The notes under the pieces: generated by a model | The model's input: only the letters and a program-made list of their open reading frames with translations | Told to the model about the DNA's origin: nothing | Database searches by the model: none | Program-made: the position numbers and the translations under genes | Part shown: piece by piece, positions 5,298 to 26,980 of the stretch | How the letters are laid out: each line of letters opens with the position of its first letter | How positions within the stretch are numbered: the stretch's first letter is position 1 | Source: a virus | Taxonomy: Duplodnaviria; Caudoviricetes | Reading direction: 5' to 3' (one strand) | Length of the DNA: 64,000 nucleotides | Virus record (IMG/VR): IMGVR_UViG_3300037247_001786 | Span: 384,001-448,000 of that record

Positions 5298-6680
5298 ATG
5301 AACACTAAATTAACACTAACACTTATTGCAGTAGTTGTTATTATCGGTATTTTAGCATCGTTTTCAAGCGGTCTTGTCGGTAAGAACGAAGCTACCAACT
5401 GGCAGATCAAGCAGTCTATTGGCGGTAAAGTAACAATTCAGGATAAACCTGGGTATTATGTCAAGGCATTCGCTACTGTAACCACTTATCCTCGTTATGT
5501 CTCACAGCGTTGGAATGATGTGGTTGGCGATGGCGTCAATAATATCGAATCTATTCGCACCACTTTTAATGATGGCGGCACTGCTCAGATTTCGACTGAT
5601 ATTAGGTTCGCAACACCGAGTAACGAAGAAACTCGTAAAGTTTTCCATCAACAGTTTGGCGGAAATATCGAGAATGCTGTTATCGCTGTTAAGTCTCACT
5701 TGACAAACTGTATCAAAGCAAGTGGACCACTTATGTCGGCATCAGAGAATCAAGCGGCTCGTAAGGCTGAATTTACTCAGCTTGTTGAAAACCAGACAGC
5801 AGAAGGCTTGTATGGTATGGAACGTATCGAAAAGTATATCGAACTTCCTCAATCAGCCGATCAGATCGAAGCTGGCATACCACCTCGCACCGAAGCAGTT
5901 ACAGCAACAAGATTGATTTTTGACAACAACGGAATGCCAGTAGTTGCTAAAGTTTCTCCTTTGAAGACTTATGGTATCACAATTCTCCAGTTCTCAATTA
6001 CAAGTACCGTCTATGACGACGAGACTTTGGAACAGTTTGCTGCTAAGAAAGAATCTTTCCTCGCTGCCGAGAAGTCAAAGGCTGATAAGATTAAGTTTGC
6101 TCAAGCCGAAATGTCAACTGTTGCCGAGTATGCTCAAAAGATTGCCGTCGAAAAAGGTTTGGCTGATATGGAAAAGATGAAGCAGACTACTGACGCCGCG
6201 AGAGACAAAGAACTTGCCGAGATCGACGCTGCTAAAAAAGTAGCTGTTGCAGAATTTGCAAAGACCGAAGCCGAGACAGTTGCTAATATGGCATTGGCTG
6301 TTGCGGCTATCAAAAAAGAAGAGGCTTTAACTGTCGCTAATATGGGTCTTGAAGTAGCCACTATCGACGCTGACGCTGCGGAACAGAAAAAGATTGCTGT
6401 TATCGCCGAAGCCGAAGGTAAGGAAAAGGCTATTGAACTTTCTGGAGCAATTACCGAGAGAGAAGAAGTATTGGCAAGAATCCTCGCCGATAAGGATGTT
6501 CAAGTCGCATTGGCTTTGAAAGACATCAAGGCTCCATCTTTCGTTGTAACTGGCGGAAGCGGTAACGGCGGAGGTTTGCAAGGCACGATGGTTGGCATTG
6601 CTATTATGAAGGCTGCAGGAGTACTTCCAGCAAACTTTAGCATTGACAATCCGATGACATCTGTTCCAGTAGTAAAGTAA
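5298..6680 (+). CDS. SPFH / band-7 / flotillin-like membrane protein
   Basis: N-terminal TM helix, SPFH-like core (TFNDGGTAQIS...FSITSTVYD), long Ala/Glu/Lys coiled-coil flotillin-like tail. Confidence 0.8.
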   Translation: MNTKLTLTLIAVVVIIGILASFSSGLVGKNEATNWQIKQSIGGKVTIQDKPGYYVKAFATVTTYPRYVSQRWNDVVGDGVNNIESIRTTFNDGGTAQISTDIRFATPSNEETRKVFHQQFGGNIENAVIAVKSHLTNCIKASGPLMSASENQAARKAEFTQLVENQTAEGLYGMERIEKYIELPQSADQIEAGIPPRTEAVTATRLIFDNNGMPVVAKVSPLKTYGITILQFSITSTVYDDETLEQFAAKKESFLAAEKSKADKIKFAQAEMSTVAEYAQKIAVEKGLADMEKMKQTTDAARDKELAEIDAAKKVAVAEFAKTEAETVANMALAVAAIKKEEALTVANMGLEVATIDADAAEQKKIAVIAEAEGKEKAIELSGAITEREEVLARILADKDVQVALALKDIKAPSFVVTGGSGNGGGLQGTMVGIAIMKAAGVLPANFSIDNPMTSVPVVK

Positions 6681-6829: not shown

Positions 6830-7654
6830 ATGAAAAAGCCACTTGGAATCATACTCTATAAGGGTAAATCTGTTATAGATGGTAAACTTATTGTAGTTGT
6901 TGCTACAGGTTTTGCCGGTAAATCAAGCAATGAGAAAACTGGAGATATGATTCAAACATGGATTTTAAGACCCGATGTACCTCCTATTATGGCAATCAAA
7001 ACAGGACATGATTTCTCTGTTTGTGGGGATTGTAAACACAAACATATCGGCTCTTGTTATGTCAACGTCGCTCACGGACCCCACAATGTTTTCTATGCCT
7101 ATCAAAACGATAGGTATGTACGGTTCGATATAGACAAGCATTCTAAACTGTTTGAAGGTCGATCAATTAGATTAGGCTCATACGGTGACCCCGCAGCAGT
7201 ACCCACTCATATATGGGAAACGGTTTGCGGTCTTACAATCGCACACACGGGTTACACGCACCAATGGAATACAAGGTTTGTAAAACCCGAATTAAAGAAT
7301 TTCTGTATGGCAAGTTGCGACAATGAAAAAGAGCAAGTAAAAGCCAAAAGTTTAGGTTGGCGTACTTTTAGAGTTAGAACAGATGTAGACCAGCCTTTAC
7401 TTGAAAACGAATTTGTATGTCCTGCAAGTATGGAATATGGACAGAAAACCTCTTGTATCAAATGCAAGGCTTGTATGGGTTTAGGAGCTAACACCAAAAA
7501 AGACCCTGTTATAGTTGTTCACGGATTAGATCATAAGATAAAGAAGTTCAACAAAGGCATGAAACTTATAGCATGGAAAGAAAAATATAGAAAAGAGTTT
7601 GATTATCCGCTTAAAAAGAAAAAAAAGCGGAAAAGAGTAATTGCCAGAGTGTAA
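6830..7654 (+). CDS. Cys-rich phage-type protein of unknown function
   Basis: SNEKTGDMIQTWIL, CGDC, IRLGSYGDPAAVP, HTGYTHQW, CPAS...C..C..C motifs; C-terminus (IARV*) is encoded by element copy 7641. Start set at the ATG after the leader. Confidence 0.65.
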   Translation: MKKPLGIILYKGKSVIDGKLIVVVATGFAGKSSNEKTGDMIQTWILRPDVPPIMAIKTGHDFSVCGDCKHKHIGSCYVNVAHGPHNVFYAYQNDRYVRFDIDKHSKLFEGRSIRLGSYGDPAAVPTHIWETVCGLTIAHTGYTHQWNTRFVKPELKNFCMASCDNEKEQVKAKSLGWRTFRVRTDVDQPLLENEFVCPASMEYGQKTSCIKCKACMGLGANTKKDPVIVVHGLDHKIKKFNKGMKLIAWKEKYRKEFDYPLKKKKKRKRVIARV

Positions 7655-19698: not shown

Positions 19699-21011
19699 AG
19701 GATAAAATTATGGGTGCAAATTTTGATTATCAAGTACTAAAAGACCAGAAACTCGAATTGACAGATGAAGAAATCGAGAAACATGCAGAAGAACTGTTTG
19801 AGCATTCTGCTTATCTTTATGGGCACGCTGGATATTCTGGTACGTTAGCTGAAAAGACTGGTGAAGGGGTTACTATCCATAGAGATAAGACTTTTGAAAC
19901 GGATGAGGAAGCGAGTAAATATGTTCTTGATACTCTTGATAACGACAAATGGGGTCCAGCGGATGTAGTCCCTATTGAGGGTAGAGGTTGGTTTATTGGT
20001 GGATGGTGTTCATCTTAATTCTTATTGGAGATATATTATGATGGCTATGGCTTTTATAAAATTTATGTTTGTAGTATTCTTGTTAGTAGGTTTCCTATCA
20101 CTGATACTCTCTATATTGGAGTATTTTGGAGAACATATTACTCCTTTCCATAAGAAATATACTTTTGGAGCATGTGCGGTATCATGGCTTATGGTTATTT
20201 CTCTTGCATTGGCATCAGGGGCATAACTTGCCAGAGTGGTAAAAAAACAGTCTTATAGAAGTGTTAATAATAACACTGAATAGGAGTATAAAATGGGAAA
20301 AGTAAAACCTACAAAAGAAGTAAAATGTCGTTGCGGTAAAAACTCTATTGTCGAGTTAATTCCAGCAGAAGGATATGTAAGGGTCACTCCTTTCATGTGC
20401 GATTGCGGTAGAACATTCCTTATCAGCGATTACGTTAATGCCATGACTACATATGGAGAGGTAGAACATAAACAATATGATGAATTTCTTGAAATGCAAA
20501 AAAAAGATGCGACAAGGAAAAAAGTAAGAGATACATCGGATGAAGGACGTAGAAAATATCAATTAGTAGACAAGTGGTTAAATAGCCTATCAATAGATGC
20601 TATAAGTAGAATTGAGGCTCAAAGAGTCTTTACCCAAACTATTGATAAAGAGTTTGTTATCGAAACTATTCTTGAACATTGTCGATATGAAGATGATTTA
20701 TTGGAGAGATTATATGGACAATATCTGGCATGTAATGCTATCTCTATGATGACTACGGATAAAAGAGAGTGGTTTATACTAAAAATGGTAGGTTGCGTAG
20801 AACCAGTATTAGTAGGTCCAATTTCTACAGAAATAGAAATGAAAGAGCGTTTGGAGAAGTATGCAGATGACCCTAAAGAGAGTCAGAACTCTCATACTTA
20901 TTTTTCCGCAAAAAAAGATGCAGATATAAGATTTTAGTATTTGCCAGAGTGGTAAAAAAATAGTCTTATAGAGTTGTAAAGTTAATGTTATAAATTCGAT
21001 TGGAGAAACAA

Positions 21012-21812
21012 ATGGACGGTTTAATGATTGACACAAAAGACAGCGGTATCGTAACAATAGAAAGAGCATTTTCTATTCCTGTTCCCGAAGAAACAAAGAC
21101 GTACAAGCCTGTCGGTAATGAGGCTCTTTGGAAAATGCTCCAGAGAACTGCCAATGTAAGAGGGCTGGAGTTAGGTACTCCTGAAATGGGACTCGCTCAA
21201 AAGGGACAGCGACTTTTTGGTCAAGTCGAGATTGTCAATCAAGACCATCTTGATAACGAAGTTCGTTTGATGCTTGGTTTCCGTAACAGCTATAACCGAT
21301 CGATGTCAGTCGGAATCTGTTTCGGAAGTAAAGTTTTTGTATGTTCTAATATGTGTTTTACGGGATATACTTCTGAAGATGAGGATGCGGTAGGTCAAGT
21401 TCATCATCGTCATCAAGCAAATGTATGGGAAGGGCTGCAAGAACGACTTAATGAGGCTTTGGATAAGTTCGAGGTATTCAAGAGCTATCAGAACGACTTT
21501 TACAGTAAGCTGAAAGAAAACGAGTTAACGGATGCGGAAGCCCATGATTTGATTATCAATTCAGTTCGGCATGAAGCAATTACGGCTAAAGATTGTTTCA
21601 CAGTTGCCGAAGAATGGGCGTTCCAGAATAGAGGCCCGCAAGATGATAGCGAAGAAGATAGATGGCATAAAGAATTCCTGCCCAGAAACGCTTGGAGCCT
21701 CTTCAATGCTTATACCGAGATACATAAGGGATTTCAGATAAAGAACCCCCTTGAAGCGAATTTGAGGTCTATCAAGATGAATAAGTTCTTTCATAACCAG
21801 TTTATGAGTTAA
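21012..21812 (+). CDS. DUF932-like phage/plasmid protein
   Basis: TKTYKPV...LMLGFRNSYNRSMSVGICFGSKVFVCSNMCF...NAWSLFNAYTE. Confidence 0.7.
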   Translation: MDGLMIDTKDSGIVTIERAFSIPVPEETKTYKPVGNEALWKMLQRTANVRGLELGTPEMGLAQKGQRLFGQVEIVNQDHLDNEVRLMLGFRNSYNRSMSVGICFGSKVFVCSNMCFTGYTSEDEDAVGQVHHRHQANVWEGLQERLNEALDKFEVFKSYQNDFYSKLKENELTDAEAHDLIINSVRHEAITAKDCFTVAEEWAFQNRGPQDDSEEDRWHKEFLPRNAWSLFNAYTEIHKGFQIKNPLEANLRSIKMNKFFHNQFMS

Positions 21813-22281: not shown

Positions 22282-22360
22282 ACACTGAAAAAAGATATTG
22301 TATAACCAGTATGTAATTTATTATCGGACGTTAAAATAGCATAAGCTGTTTTCGTATATA

Positions 22361-22681
22361 TTGTTAAGTTGGAGTAGTATTATGTGTAAGTTAGAATTTT
22401 TGGACAAGCATTTAGTATCACTGATAACGATTGTTATCTTGGCAGCAGTACTATTTGCGACAAGTGGTTGTGGGGTAGTCGATGGGGCTTTGCAAGATAT
22501 AGCTGGGACAGCTACTGCTTTAAGAGAAATCTCTAAGCCATTAGAAGAGAGAGCAAGAGCTAAAGATGCAGAAAGAAATGCAAAGTGGCTTACTATCTGG
22601 ACTATGCAACAGGAAGATTATAAAGAGATAGGGCATGAACCTAAAAAATTGCCTAAATTTCTTAAATTTGGTAAGAAATAG
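22361..22681 (+). CDS. Putative lipoprotein
   Basis: Hydrophobic stretch ending in lipobox-like ATSGC. Confidence 0.45.
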   Translation: MLSWSSIMCKLEFLDKHLVSLITIVILAAVLFATSGCGVVDGALQDIAGTATALREISKPLEERARAKDAERNAKWLTIWTMQQEDYKEIGHEPKKLPKFLKFGKK

Positions 22682-23405
22682 ACATTAACAAAAGAGGGTA
22701 GTCATATTCTTTTGAGTATTACTATCCTCTTTGTTTTTAATATTAAATTAATTTTAGGAGATTTATAATGTTTAGTTCCATAGATGGTGGTTTTCAAATA
22801 GTTTTAGAAGGTTTATTTACAATGGATTTCTCTTGGTTTTTTATGTTCTGCTTAATAGCGGTACTTAATGTAATTAAAGTCCCAATAATGATAATAAAGA
22901 AGTTGAAAAAATAAGGGGTATACGATGGAGATTTACTTTTATTTTCCCTTAACAGTTTTATTTTTTATGAATGTCGTGAAGAAAATTTTCTAATTGCCAG
23001 AGTGGTAAAAAAATAGGTTTATAGTAATATGAAAATGATTAAAAAATGGCTTATACCTATTATTATAACATTGTTAATCGCTCTGTTTGCAGTTTGTTGT
23101 GCAAAAAAACAAGTGGAAAAAACAGTGCAACAAGATAGAATCTTAATGGAGAAATAAAATGATTTGCCCATATTGTATAAAAGAAATTAGTATGTTCGCG
23201 ACAAAATGTCCTTATTGTCACAGTGCAGTTCAGTATGATGCTGGCTCCGAGCTTAAAGATTGTTTTAAGGCACTTGTTATTATGGTAATAGTAGGTATAA
23301 TTTTATGGGCGATATTGTCGGCGGTATAAGTTGCCAGAGTGGTAAAAAAATAGTCTTATAGTATTATAAAGTTAATATCTTGAATTTTGATTAGGAGCTG
23401 AAAAA

Positions 23406-24140
23406 ATGAGAAAAATAATGAGCGATGATAACACTGTTTGGGATGAACGGAAAACAGATTTTACTGAACCATTGAGGAAAAAATCGGATGGTAAGCGATC
23501 AGCAGTTGCGGGGATTATTGTCCTATTAGGGATTATCTTGATATTTGGTATATGCTTTGTAGTGTCACGGATTACGACGGTTCAAGATGATCAATGGGCT
23601 GTTCGGCAACATATGAATGGGGATATAGAGGTTATAGAAGGTCCAGGAGTTTATCTTCCCTTGTTTAGCAAAATATGGATATATCCTCTTAAAATAACAG
23701 TTGAATATAAAACAACCGCTTATTTTAACGATACTGAGGCAAGAGAGGTGAAAACGCTCTGCCGAGTAGAATTACCCGAAGATAATACTGATAGAGTATC
23801 TCTTCATAAAGGACTTTCAGGAGACATATTTAATGTATATCCAATAGTTAGGGCTGCTGTTGGCAATTCGATTAAATCAATTGCCCCTATTATGAGTACA
23901 AATGAGATTGTCTATCACCGCAGAGCGGAATTTTGCGAATTAGTATATCGTCAATTAAAAGAAGGTCTTTTTCTCCAACATAGTTCTAGTAAAATCATTG
24001 ACGGTAAAAACGTCCTTATGTCTACAATCCAAAAGGATGAAAACGGAGACTATATCCCTATGAGCGACGCTATATTAGAGAGAATGGGATTGAATGTATC
24101 GCTTTTTAGCATCACCTCAATAGGCGATTTGCCAGAGTGA
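23406..24140 (+). CDS. Truncated SPFH/band-7 paralogue
   Basis: TM helix + SPFH-like core similar to 5298-6680 (AWRQ/NWQI start, R.AEF, FSITS); lacks the coiled-coil tail and ends DLPE* inside element 24129. Confidence 0.7.
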   Translation: MRKIMSDDNTVWDERKTDFTEPLRKKSDGKRSAVAGIIVLLGIILIFGICFVVSRITTVQDDQWAVRQHMNGDIEVIEGPGVYLPLFSKIWIYPLKITVEYKTTAYFNDTEAREVKTLCRVELPEDNTDRVSLHKGLSGDIFNVYPIVRAAVGNSIKSIAPIMSTNEIVYHRRAEFCELVYRQLKEGLFLQHSSSKIIDGKNVLMSTIQKDENGDYIPMSDAILERMGLNVSLFSITSIGDLPE

Positions 24141-26284
24141 CAAAAAAATAGTCTTATAGTATTATGAAGCCGAAAAAAGAAAAACATATTACTTCGAGAG
24201 TTAGGAAAGAGAACAAGACAGATAGAGGCGATCTACATACAAAGGTCATACCTGATAAAAAGAAAAAAGTGAATAAAGAAAAATGTCGAGGAAAGATAGA
24301 AGAAAATGAATGAAAAACTTTTCCCATTCCAGGTGAGCGAACCCCGCAAAATGACTATATTAGAACAAGTTTTTTGTATGGTTTATCTTGCGACCAGTAA
24401 AACTCTAAAAGAATTGAGACGATACCAGTCTTTAGTTGAAAAACAATTTATTTTAGCTACTCAAAATAATTGTGGGGAAAAATCATTCAAAAATTTAGAG
24501 GCGATGCAACACTGTTATGATGCTGCCGTAGCTTATCAACAATTCGATGATGATTTCTGGTTAGCTTTTATAGATACATCTGATAGAACCTAAAATGGTT
24601 TGGATTATTTGCCAGAGTAGTAAAAATTTAATTTTATAGAAGTGTTAATAATACTTTTAAGGAAAAGAAAATGATTGAAGTTACTACTAATGAACCGATG
24701 GTTATAGAAGTAAGACATATAATGCACAAACATTTCGAGATTGAAGTTAAAATTGACAATCAGCCTCATGATCTCAGCATTTCGATTATATCGGAAGAAG
24801 ATGAAGAAGGGGAAGATACGGAGTTGGTTCGTATCAGAGTTGACGATAGGACTTTCACCGTTGGAGAAAAAGAAGATGTTGCAGAGAAACTTAACGGACA
24901 TCTTGGAGTCTGGTTCGATAGTAAATATCCTTTGTATCAGGTAGAAAAAACTAAAGAAACTCTTGACGATGTTTTTGATACTATTTGGGAATATCTCGAA
25001 GAAAAAGACCTATGCTAATTTGCCAGAGTGAAGAAAAACTAAGGTTATATCATTATGAAACATGCAAACATAGACAATAGACTAATGAGTAATGGGGCGG
25101 TAGCGTTCAAAGAGGGATTAGGTTGGTTCGGACTGCACCACATAGGAGACCCTACTCCGTCAATATTGGGGGCACAGGTATGGAGACATCTACAAGAAGA
25201 TATACATTATCTGAAAAGTATCAGAAAGAGGTTACTCGCTTATAAATCTTGGGATGAATATATTAACGATGGACTTTGTCCCTATTGCGGTAAATATGAT
25301 AAGGGGATGCCGGTCGCAATTCATCCCGAATTATATAGCAAGACAAACCAGATAGGGCTATATCTACCTGACCCAGAAGCAACAGACTCAAAGACAACGC
25401 TCGCTACTGACCCAGAAGCGAAACAGCATAAACATATTAAACACAGGAATCTTATATCTGCTGATAATGCTAAAGAAGATGGAGTTTTCATAGAATGGGT
25501 ATATGTTATAGACCCTTTAAGTTATGAATTAAATATACTGAAATCTGTTAGAGGAGAAGGCACCCACGTTCAATCTGTATTCGGAGGAATGAAACTATAT
25601 AACTATCAATATATTTCAGTAAGAAAATGTGAACTTCTTCGGAAAGAACAATCTTGGGAGCCTGATTGGGAAGAAATAGAAGAAAAAGGTAAAAAATTGG
25701 CGACAGGATTTTACCATAAATATACGAGGCAGGCAAAATGAAAGGCAAAACATATAATAGTATAATATTGGGTATTGGAATAACAACTGTGATTTTCGCT
25801 CTTCTAACTATCCTTAATCATTTTTTTCTTATACCTGCTGTTGTAGGACTATTATGTATGTTGGGTTTCGGTTTTACGTTTCAATATGATATAGATGATG
25901 AAGACTATCTTTAAGGAGAATTAAAATAATGTTTATTGAGATAATAAGAGAAGCAAAAGATAGGCTATATAGTAATTATTGGAGATTTATGATATCCACA
26001 GATACTCCAAAAATAAAAGTAACTTTATGGGAATTTCGTAAAAGAAGTAGAAGAACTACTAGATGCCAGTGGGTATCAGAACATACTTACACTTCGTTAG
26101 ATAGGAGACATAATAACCTCAAAAAGGGAGATTTTATAATTCCAGAAGATGTGGATAAAGAATTGAAAGAGAAGTTAAATAAGATGGTATCAGAGATTGA
26201 AGTAGAAATAAGATAATTTGCCAGAGTGGGTAAAAATCTAATTTATAGTATTGTAAAGAATAATATAATACTGGAGTTAAAACG

Positions 26285-26980
26285 ATGTATAGAGAAGGCC
26301 AGAAAATAATTACTAAAAGTAACGAACACGATGAAAACTATCGAGTTGGTATTTTCGTTGCATATAATGACGCACTGAAAAGTCCTGATAATATTCCTAT
26401 GATAGAAATAGAGGGTATCACTTATACTTGTTTCGGTATAACTATGCCTTTCACAACCAGTCTTACTGCAAGACTCGATAAACTTACTCCAAAACATCAA
26501 TGGGAATTTCTTTGTGCTATTAAGAGTTGGGATAGCGGCAATCAGTTTATCATTATGAGAGGGTTGCCGGGAAGTGGAAAATCCACTCTTGCCAGAAAGT
26601 TAGCTGGTCTAACTGGTCAAGTTTTTAGTACAGATGATTTCTTTTCTATGACGGGAGAGTATATCTTTAATCCTACACGACTTGGCAAGGCTCATAAATG
26701 GAATCAGAATAGGTCAAAGGCTGCTTTCTCTGCTAATATACCTATTATTGTAATTGATAACACTAACACTACGATTAGCGAAATGAGAAATTATCTGCCT
26801 CATATCGAATTGGCTCGACTTTATGGTTATCAAGTTTTTATTGCAGAACCAGATACAGATTGGCGTTTTAACGTCGATGAATTGGTACTTAAAAATTCTC
26901 ATGGCGTACCTAAAGAAGCAATACAAAGGATGGCTGATAGGTATGCTCACGATGTTAGGTTGGAAGATATTTTGTTTTAA
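26285..26980 (+). CDS. P-loop kinase (AAA_33 / N4BP2-like polynucleotide kinase) with N-terminal extension
   Basis: IIMRGLPGSGKSTLARKL, STDDFF, VIDNTN, KNSHGVPKEAIQRM. Confidence 0.85.
   Translation: MYREGQKIITKSNEHDENYRVGIFVAYNDALKSPDNIPMIEIEGITYTCFGITMPFTTSLTARLDKLTPKHQWEFLCAIKSWDSGNQFIIMRGLPGSGKSTLARKLAGLTGQVFSTDDFFSMTGEYIFNPTRLGKAHKWNQNRSKAAFSANIPIIVIDNTNTTISEMRNYLPHIELARLYGYQVFIAEPDTDWRFNVDELVLKNSHGVPKEAIQRMADRYAHDVRLEDILF

Follow-up and report, generated by a model that had tools for sequence, protein, structure and literature searches.

A tail-less SPFH-like protein in a huge phage, encoded by a gene that stops inside a promoter-like repeated element

The locus and its two SPFH-like genes

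Here we examined a 64,000-nucleotide stretch (bases 384001-448000) of the phage genome IMG/VR IMGVR_UViG_3300037247_001786, referred to below as the window. The record comprises 460,978 bp with direct terminal repeats and 34% G+C, and one sequencing run, a marine-sediment metagenome, contains the phage. Two SPFH-like genes, each from a different subfamily, lie 18 kb apart in the same putatively element-driven block (table 1). The shorter one sits between two copies of a repeated element, the second of which overlaps both its stop codon and the start of the next open reading frame (ORF). Upstream lies a DUF932 gene that serves as a synteny anchor. Between this gene and the short SPFH-like gene (window 22361-23329) are four small ORFs of 106, 48, 42 and 56 aa, whose translations have N-termini that look hydrophobic or lipoprotein-like; the last, of 56 aa, gave a weak zinc-ribbon match (E 0.0029, under the Pfam cut-off). 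In four related phages (L003, L007, L008, and L009) the DUF932-like gene directly adjoins the SPFH gene, with no intervening small ORFs, and the four ORFs of the window could represent an insertion that carries membrane-protein genes.

Table 1. Features of the short SPFH-like locus and its paralogue (window coordinates)
Feature	Position	Strand	Description and basis
Short SPFH-like gene	23406..24140	+	244 aa; clade A (longer N-terminal segment); ORF list, phrog_11908, AlphaFold2, Foldseek
Long SPFH-like paralogue	5298..6680	+	460 aa; clade B (long-tail subfamily); BLASTP, phrog_11908, tree
Element copy upstream of short SPFH gene	23331..23368	+	Exact match to 37-nt pattern; promoter-like
AGGAG ribosome-binding site	23389..23393	+	12 nt 5' of short SPFH ATG; read from sequence
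Transmembrane helix, residues 29-54 of short SPFH protein	23490..23567	+	AlphaFold2 model
SPFH domain, residues 57-240	23574..24125	+	Final beta strand at residues 230-240; model secondary structure
Element copy at 3' end of short SPFH gene	24129..24166	+	Bases 1-12 are L-P-E-stop; the following ORF starts with an ATG at bases 36-38
Lys-rich 49-aa ORF	24164..24313	+	Starts at element position 36; ORF list
DUF932 gene	21000..21812	+	270 aa; synteny anchor; Pfam DUF932 E 4e-12

With Pfam PF01145 (Band_7), no match above the gathering score was obtained for the short protein; the long paralogue also scores below the cut-off (14.6 versus 23.6 bits), and one orthologue from a related phage, P0002, has a precomputed Band_7 hit. 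The phrog_11908 HMM recovers both window proteins, the long one over profile positions 5-371 of 430 (E 1.8e-33) and the short one over positions 7-242 only (E 5.2e-10). The AlphaFold2 model of the short protein (pLDDT 91.8) has a disordered N-terminus, a hydrophobic transmembrane helix at residues 29-54 that provides the N-terminal membrane anchor, and an alpha/beta domain closed by a last strand; in this model the chain ends four residues past that strand, and the long helix that follows an SPFH domain (coiled-coil CC1) is missing. When the model was compared with the PDB by Foldseek, the best match was HflC (7vhq_G, E 2.6e-9), followed by prohibitin, flotillin, stomatin, and erlin, with E values up to 1e-6 and a probability of 1.00. 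Similarly, a 61-member family profile retrieved prohibitin, HflC, major vault protein, erlin, and stomatin from the PDB (E 1.6e-4 to 0.07), the prohibitin alignment (E 1.6e-4) extending through the final SPFH strand into the first part of the helix. The SPFH assignment of the short protein is supported by predicted structure, not by Pfam. Residues 1-28, ahead of the transmembrane helix, are rich in Lys and Arg, and by the positive-inside rule the N-terminus is probably cytoplasmic.

The two genes exist as an earlier reading of this DNA made without database searches (the sequence-only reading) had described them, with frames of 244 and 460 codons. The pairwise alignment of their products (BLASTP, 26% identity, E 1e-22, residues 38-238 against 7-236) terminates at ..FSITS in both. 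Past this point the long protein continues for 222-224 residues and the short one for six (..IGDLPE), followed by its stop. The 12 bases TTGCCAGAGTGA (24129-24140) are at once the L-P-E-stop codons and the start of the element copy. Of the DLPE that had been attributed to the element, LPE and the stop are indeed encoded there; the D codon (24126-24128) falls just outside the conserved core.

Relatives and the equivalent locus in other phages

A word-index protein search with the short protein returned no match besides itself. Likewise, no match was found for the short protein in viral_contigs and metagenome_contigs, for its DUF932 neighbour in viral_contigs, or for the region 22300-25800 among phage records by megablast. 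An exhaustive HMMER search collected 132 family proteins, the closest of which, besides the short protein itself, is 34% identical to it. A tree built on the SPFH core resolved two clades. Members of clade A have 48-67 residues before the core, keep a D-x-G-T-I-W motif, and carry tails of 20-109 aa; in clade B the core is preceded by about 25 residues, and the tails are mostly of 150-290 aa, with four shorter members (8, 21, 90, and 126). The long protein of the window belongs to clade B (tail of 222), and the short one, whose tail has just 4 residues, is placed inside clade A, where the other 15 of 15 sampled members have tails. Because the pair come from subfamilies that parted long ago, the short protein is no trimmed version of its long paralogue; the 460-aa protein, used as the reference for truncation in the sequence-only reading, has to be replaced by clade A, which is the right comparison. 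From the tail lengths in clade A it follows that about 30-110 aa are missing from the short protein, not about 220. The earlier description of an SPFH protein without a flotillin-like tail is thus sound in that a helix found in its relatives is lacking, and overstated as to how much has gone. Since the short protein is nested in a tailed clade whose sister clade is long-tailed, parsimony favours loss, and the tail-less state is, on the sequences compared, both real and derived. In other respects the protein looks like an ordinary member: its core identity to clade A averages 29% (clade range 25-37%), and the invariant residues are retained, namely G81 in the family alignment (A2) and G81, P124, H134, and Q183 in clade A.

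Two short homologues were found outside this comparison. P0119 (234 aa), a distant one, is a complete gene within its contig and ends seven residues past the final strand, without an element there; SPFH-only forms therefore occur elsewhere. P0028 (249 aa) was discarded as a naturally short homologue, its C-terminus diverging ahead of the final strand in a way that looks frameshifted. A split gene was considered and rejected for both, the ORFs that follow them being unrelated to SPFH tails. Directly after the P0119 gene lies a tRNA with a CUA anticodon (L010:3215-3289), TAG-reading and of suppressor type, labelled Pyl by ARAGORN.

The equivalent locus can be recognized in related phages. In L003, L007, L008, and L009 the clade A gene is found directly downstream of a 268-269-aa gene in the DUF932 position, and the DUF932 gene of the window matches that of L003 (5082-5891) with 37% identity (tblastn, E 1e-57). 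The search for a longer orthologue at this place, which the sequence-only reading had proposed, yielded tailed orthologues of 276-359 aa beside the DUF932-like gene. Three positional orthologues, P0002 (276 aa), P0009 (301 aa), and P0006 (359 aa), share with the short protein the N-terminal motif, the fold, the DUF932 neighbour, and an element-type motif at both gene ends; they differ from it in sequence (29-36% identity) and in having, each of them, a helical tail of 31-109 residues. Orthologues naturally of about 245 aa that end at the same position without the element, which that reading had named as the observation to set against a truncation, do not occur among the 15 other sampled members of clade A, all of them tailed; the distant P0119 is short with no element. 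A model of P0009 (pLDDT 87) contains the same secondary-structure elements as the short protein and then a single 55-residue helix (243-297), and P243-E244 of the short protein align with P243-E244 of P0009, within a conserved P-x-E-E motif that opens this helix.

The tailed genes themselves run into the element. The ends LPEK-stop (L005), IPEK-stop (L006), and QPEK-stop (L007 and L008) each lie inside the gene's own element, and in L003 the TAA directly abuts it. In L009 the 359-aa orthologue has an in-frame TAG 66 nt before the element (L009:6078-6150); past it, the frame stays open for another 22 codons, whose translation agrees with the tail ends of P0007 and P0008, before closing with LPEK-stop in the element. 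This TAG would be a recent nonsense mutation or one that is read through. Judged by these frames, tails are visibly eroding in at least one relative, L009.

The repeated element and the ends of genes

Element copies were counted by a strict core search and, separately, by a 12-mer search tolerating two mismatches, which gave 67 sites against 2.45 expected. The strict core occurs 63 times in the window and 78 times genome-wide, always (100%) on the plus strand, and all but one of the 78 copies form a single block of about 65 kb (about 362-427.5 kb of the 461-kb genome). Within this block the element precedes nearly every gene, in the orientation of the genes. Positions 3-10 are invariant and are followed by an A/T tract and by a TTATAG-like conserved block at 26-31. 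An ATG occupies positions 36-38 in 15 of the 78 copies, including those that start the ORFs at 24164 (49 aa), 25055 (228 aa), 23029, and 21887; such starts, a few bases past the TTATAG block, suggest leaderless mRNAs. Among the remaining copies, those inspected have a GGAG-type ribosome-binding site 20-35 nt downstream and then an ATG. A generic sigma-70 scan did not rise above its shuffled controls (20 sites against 19.4 expected). In related phages (L003, L005, L006, L007, and L009) a diverged homologous element is present at equivalent intergenic places, reading TT[T/A]CCAGA[G/C]AA, an A/T run, and then CTTCTATGG (e.g. L003:5937-5975 and 6832-6870). Given this diverged counterpart at the same places, the element evolves with each phage lineage and is not a mobile repeat of one genome. 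Overall, it behaves as a class-specific promoter for one gene block, and we regard it as a promoter-like candidate.

Overlap between gene ends and elements is frequent. About 30 of the 63 ORFs upstream of window elements stop 0-4 nt ahead of the element, and another 15 stop inside it. Seven of these 15 end ..PE-stop, their TGA or TAG lying at element positions 10-12 (ORF ends at elements 24129, 27788, 28132, 29699, 30092, 31985, and 33332). Genome-wide, 17 of the 78 copies are entered by a frame that has been open for 60 codons or more. Element-internal stops being common in the block, the position of a stop is not by itself a sign of recombination. The sequence-only reading had taken the element-borne stop of the short gene for a direct recombination footprint; with 15 of 63 window ORFs stopping in the same way and tail-bearing orthologues ending ..PEK-stop in the element, this claim was not borne out. 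The element-borne stop is probably the original gene end in the short protein's subfamily, from a time when the tail was present. For this genome, then, a gene end that overlaps an element should be seen as normal packing and not be counted as cassette recombination.

Loss of the helix and comparison with known systems

On balance, and with modest confidence, the explanation that we favour overall is that the helix was lost long ago, in frame, while the element-borne stop was kept, the product probably being still made. The short gene is the positional orthologue of a huge-phage subfamily whose members have an SPFH domain, one long helix (20-109 residues), and usually a ..PEK-stop in the element of the next gene. 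Its product would be a single-pass membrane protein in which a Lys/Arg-rich N-terminus and one transmembrane helix precede an SPFH domain that is complete. The long helix after this domain would have been lost here, leaving the L-P-E-stop from the element. One end of the deletion may lie at the P-x-E-E motif that opens the helix, and the other at the P-E codons of the element (CCAGAG), in the gene's own downstream copy or in one further on; with both P-E pairs in frame, such a deletion would not shift the reading frame. Two origins are conceivable for the terminal P-E: it may be what is left of the helix's opening turn, or it may come from the older ..PEK-stop end. A deletion joining two short similar stretches, CCnGAr where the helix begins and CCAGAG within the element, would produce this ambiguity. 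In relatives, the DNA similarity between the P-x-E-E motif and the element amounts to at most 5-6 nt, and the agreement of L-P-E with P-x-E-E involves only two residues and could be chance. The loss would be old or at least undatable, no relative closer than 36% identity having been found, so that the endpoints are unreadable from an ancestor. In solved SPFH assemblies the helix after the domain forms the cage wall. An SPFH-only membrane protein would form no closed SPFH cage alone, and would act via side-by-side SPFH contacts or via its N-terminal segment.

Several observations bear on the state of the gene and on the age of the event. When the tail of the long paralogue was compared by tblastn with 24100-26300, the lowest E was 0.61; for the tails of 13 relatives the lowest E downstream of the gene was 0.046, both matches being in low-complexity sequence; and against the whole genome both sets matched nothing besides the long paralogue itself. 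The 49-aa ORF at 24164 was rejected as a tail remnant, the sole match to relatives' tails on its strand (24100-25100) having an E of 5.8. One contig spans 23332-24700 without differences, and the other apparent joints are element copies from elsewhere. Alternative junctions across 24,120-24,140, suggested earlier as a trace of recombination, do not appear in this one bridging contig, which probably comes from the source sample and so is not independent; contigs also drop rare variants. The proposal of a pseudogene or a recent event fares poorly: an element copy and an AGGAG site precede the gene, its 244-codon frame, fold, and invariant residues are intact, and no tail remnant is found.

A second possibility, compatible with the favoured loss of the helix and in itself unlikely, though deserving consideration, is that the tail-less protein works as a partner or modulator of the long paralogue, joining or interrupting its ring by SPFH-SPFH contacts, that is, in a dominant-negative or ring-opening manner. 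Both subfamilies occur in the one block, as noted above. Because solved SPFH assemblies often hold two paralogues (e.g. HflK/HflC and prohibitin 1/2), the long (1-300) and short (29-244) proteins were modelled as a pair. The complex scored 0.39, against 0.01 for the best of three controls, its runs sharing at least 76% of contacts and the partner pLDDT being at least 79. Of 80 solved complexes, 58 attain that mark, as do 2 of 110 mismatched pairs; scores of 0.60 or less, on the other hand, include only 7 of the 80 solved complexes together with both passing mismatches, and so weak a pass is, for this tool, more often wrong than right. SPFH heteromers are moreover present in the PDB, so the score may reflect mere likeness to them, and the contigs of relatives are too short to show both subfamilies (that of P0010 has 4.5 kb). 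The dominant-negative form put forward in the sequence-only reading thus gains weak support from modelling.

A rather improbable alternative is that the short gene is a decaying or functionless remnant, which persists for lack of time since the helix was lost. The long helix after the SPFH domain has been described as important for oligomerisation (bioRxiv 10.1101/2024.05.25.595881), and a helix-less copy could therefore be non-functional. In addition, every other clade A member has at least 20 tail residues, and the in-frame TAG of L009, 22 codons before the element-borne end, indicates tail erosion in the group. Against decay, 244 codons have stayed open despite the AT-rich genome, the invariant residues are kept, the fold is predicted very confidently, the expression signals are intact, and the divergence from relatives is typical of clade A.

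One could go further and imagine that the element doubles as a recombination hotspot that trims or reshuffles early-gene cassettes, the tail-less protein having been selected as a ring-opening or capping subunit that tunes a heteromeric SPFH assembly, formed on the host membrane together with the long paralogue; we offer this as a speculation and think it quite unlikely. Very unlikely, too, is the scenario in which recombination or deletion at the element recently truncated a full-length SPFH gene of the 460-aa kind, so that a pseudogene resulted. The partial coverage of the 430 positions of phrog_11908, the origin of the stop codon in the element, and the arrangement of all element copies as same-strand direct repeats, which would be prone to deletion, are in its favour. 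Yet the short and long proteins, 26% identical, come from different old clades and the short protein's own clade is short-tailed; element-internal stops are common, tail-bearing orthologues included; recombination between elements would remove the stretch from one copy to another and not begin within a gene; no tail remnant is found; and the ORF, ribosome-binding site, fold, and invariant residues are intact, with a divergence usual for the clade. Finally, that the short form is ancestral in its lineage and the tails of relatives were gained later is extremely unlikely, for although P0119 is complete with an element-free end, the short protein is nested among 15 of 15 tailed clade A members next to a long-tailed sister clade, and the other candidate, P0028, looks frameshifted.

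Returning to the favoured old loss of the helix, the short protein can be set beside known SPFH systems: HflK/HflC of E. coli (PDB 7vhq and 7wi3), prohibitin 1/2 (8rrh), flotillin 1/2 (9bq2), stomatin (9oh9), and erlin 1/2. It resembles them in its N-terminal membrane anchor and SPFH alpha/beta domain; it differs in sequence (8-16% identity) and in lacking their long helix (CC1/CC2), which there forms cage wall and cap. Among phage proteins, it is similar to phrog_11908 and to hypothetical proteins of the T5-like Vibrio phages pVp-1, Thalassa, and River4 (tblastn, 24-25% identity over residues 66-238), and is set apart from the phrog_11908 profile by matching only its first 242 positions. SPFH proteins are now known as common in huge phages; a survey reports 420 SPFH-domain proteins in 7,187 genomes, some of them beside PspA (bioRxiv 10.64898/2026.10.24.761521). 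Like these, the short one is an SPFH protein of a phage of >200 kb, lying among membrane-directed genes; tail-less forms, the two subfamilies seen here, and gene ends that overlap a promoter-like motif are not described in the passages of the survey that were consulted. Against the background of SPFH proteins already reported from huge phages, the tail-less copy is a structural variant. A natural, apparently intact, helix-less SPFH copy in the same genome as a full-length paralogue offers a ready test of the SPFH domain acting alone.
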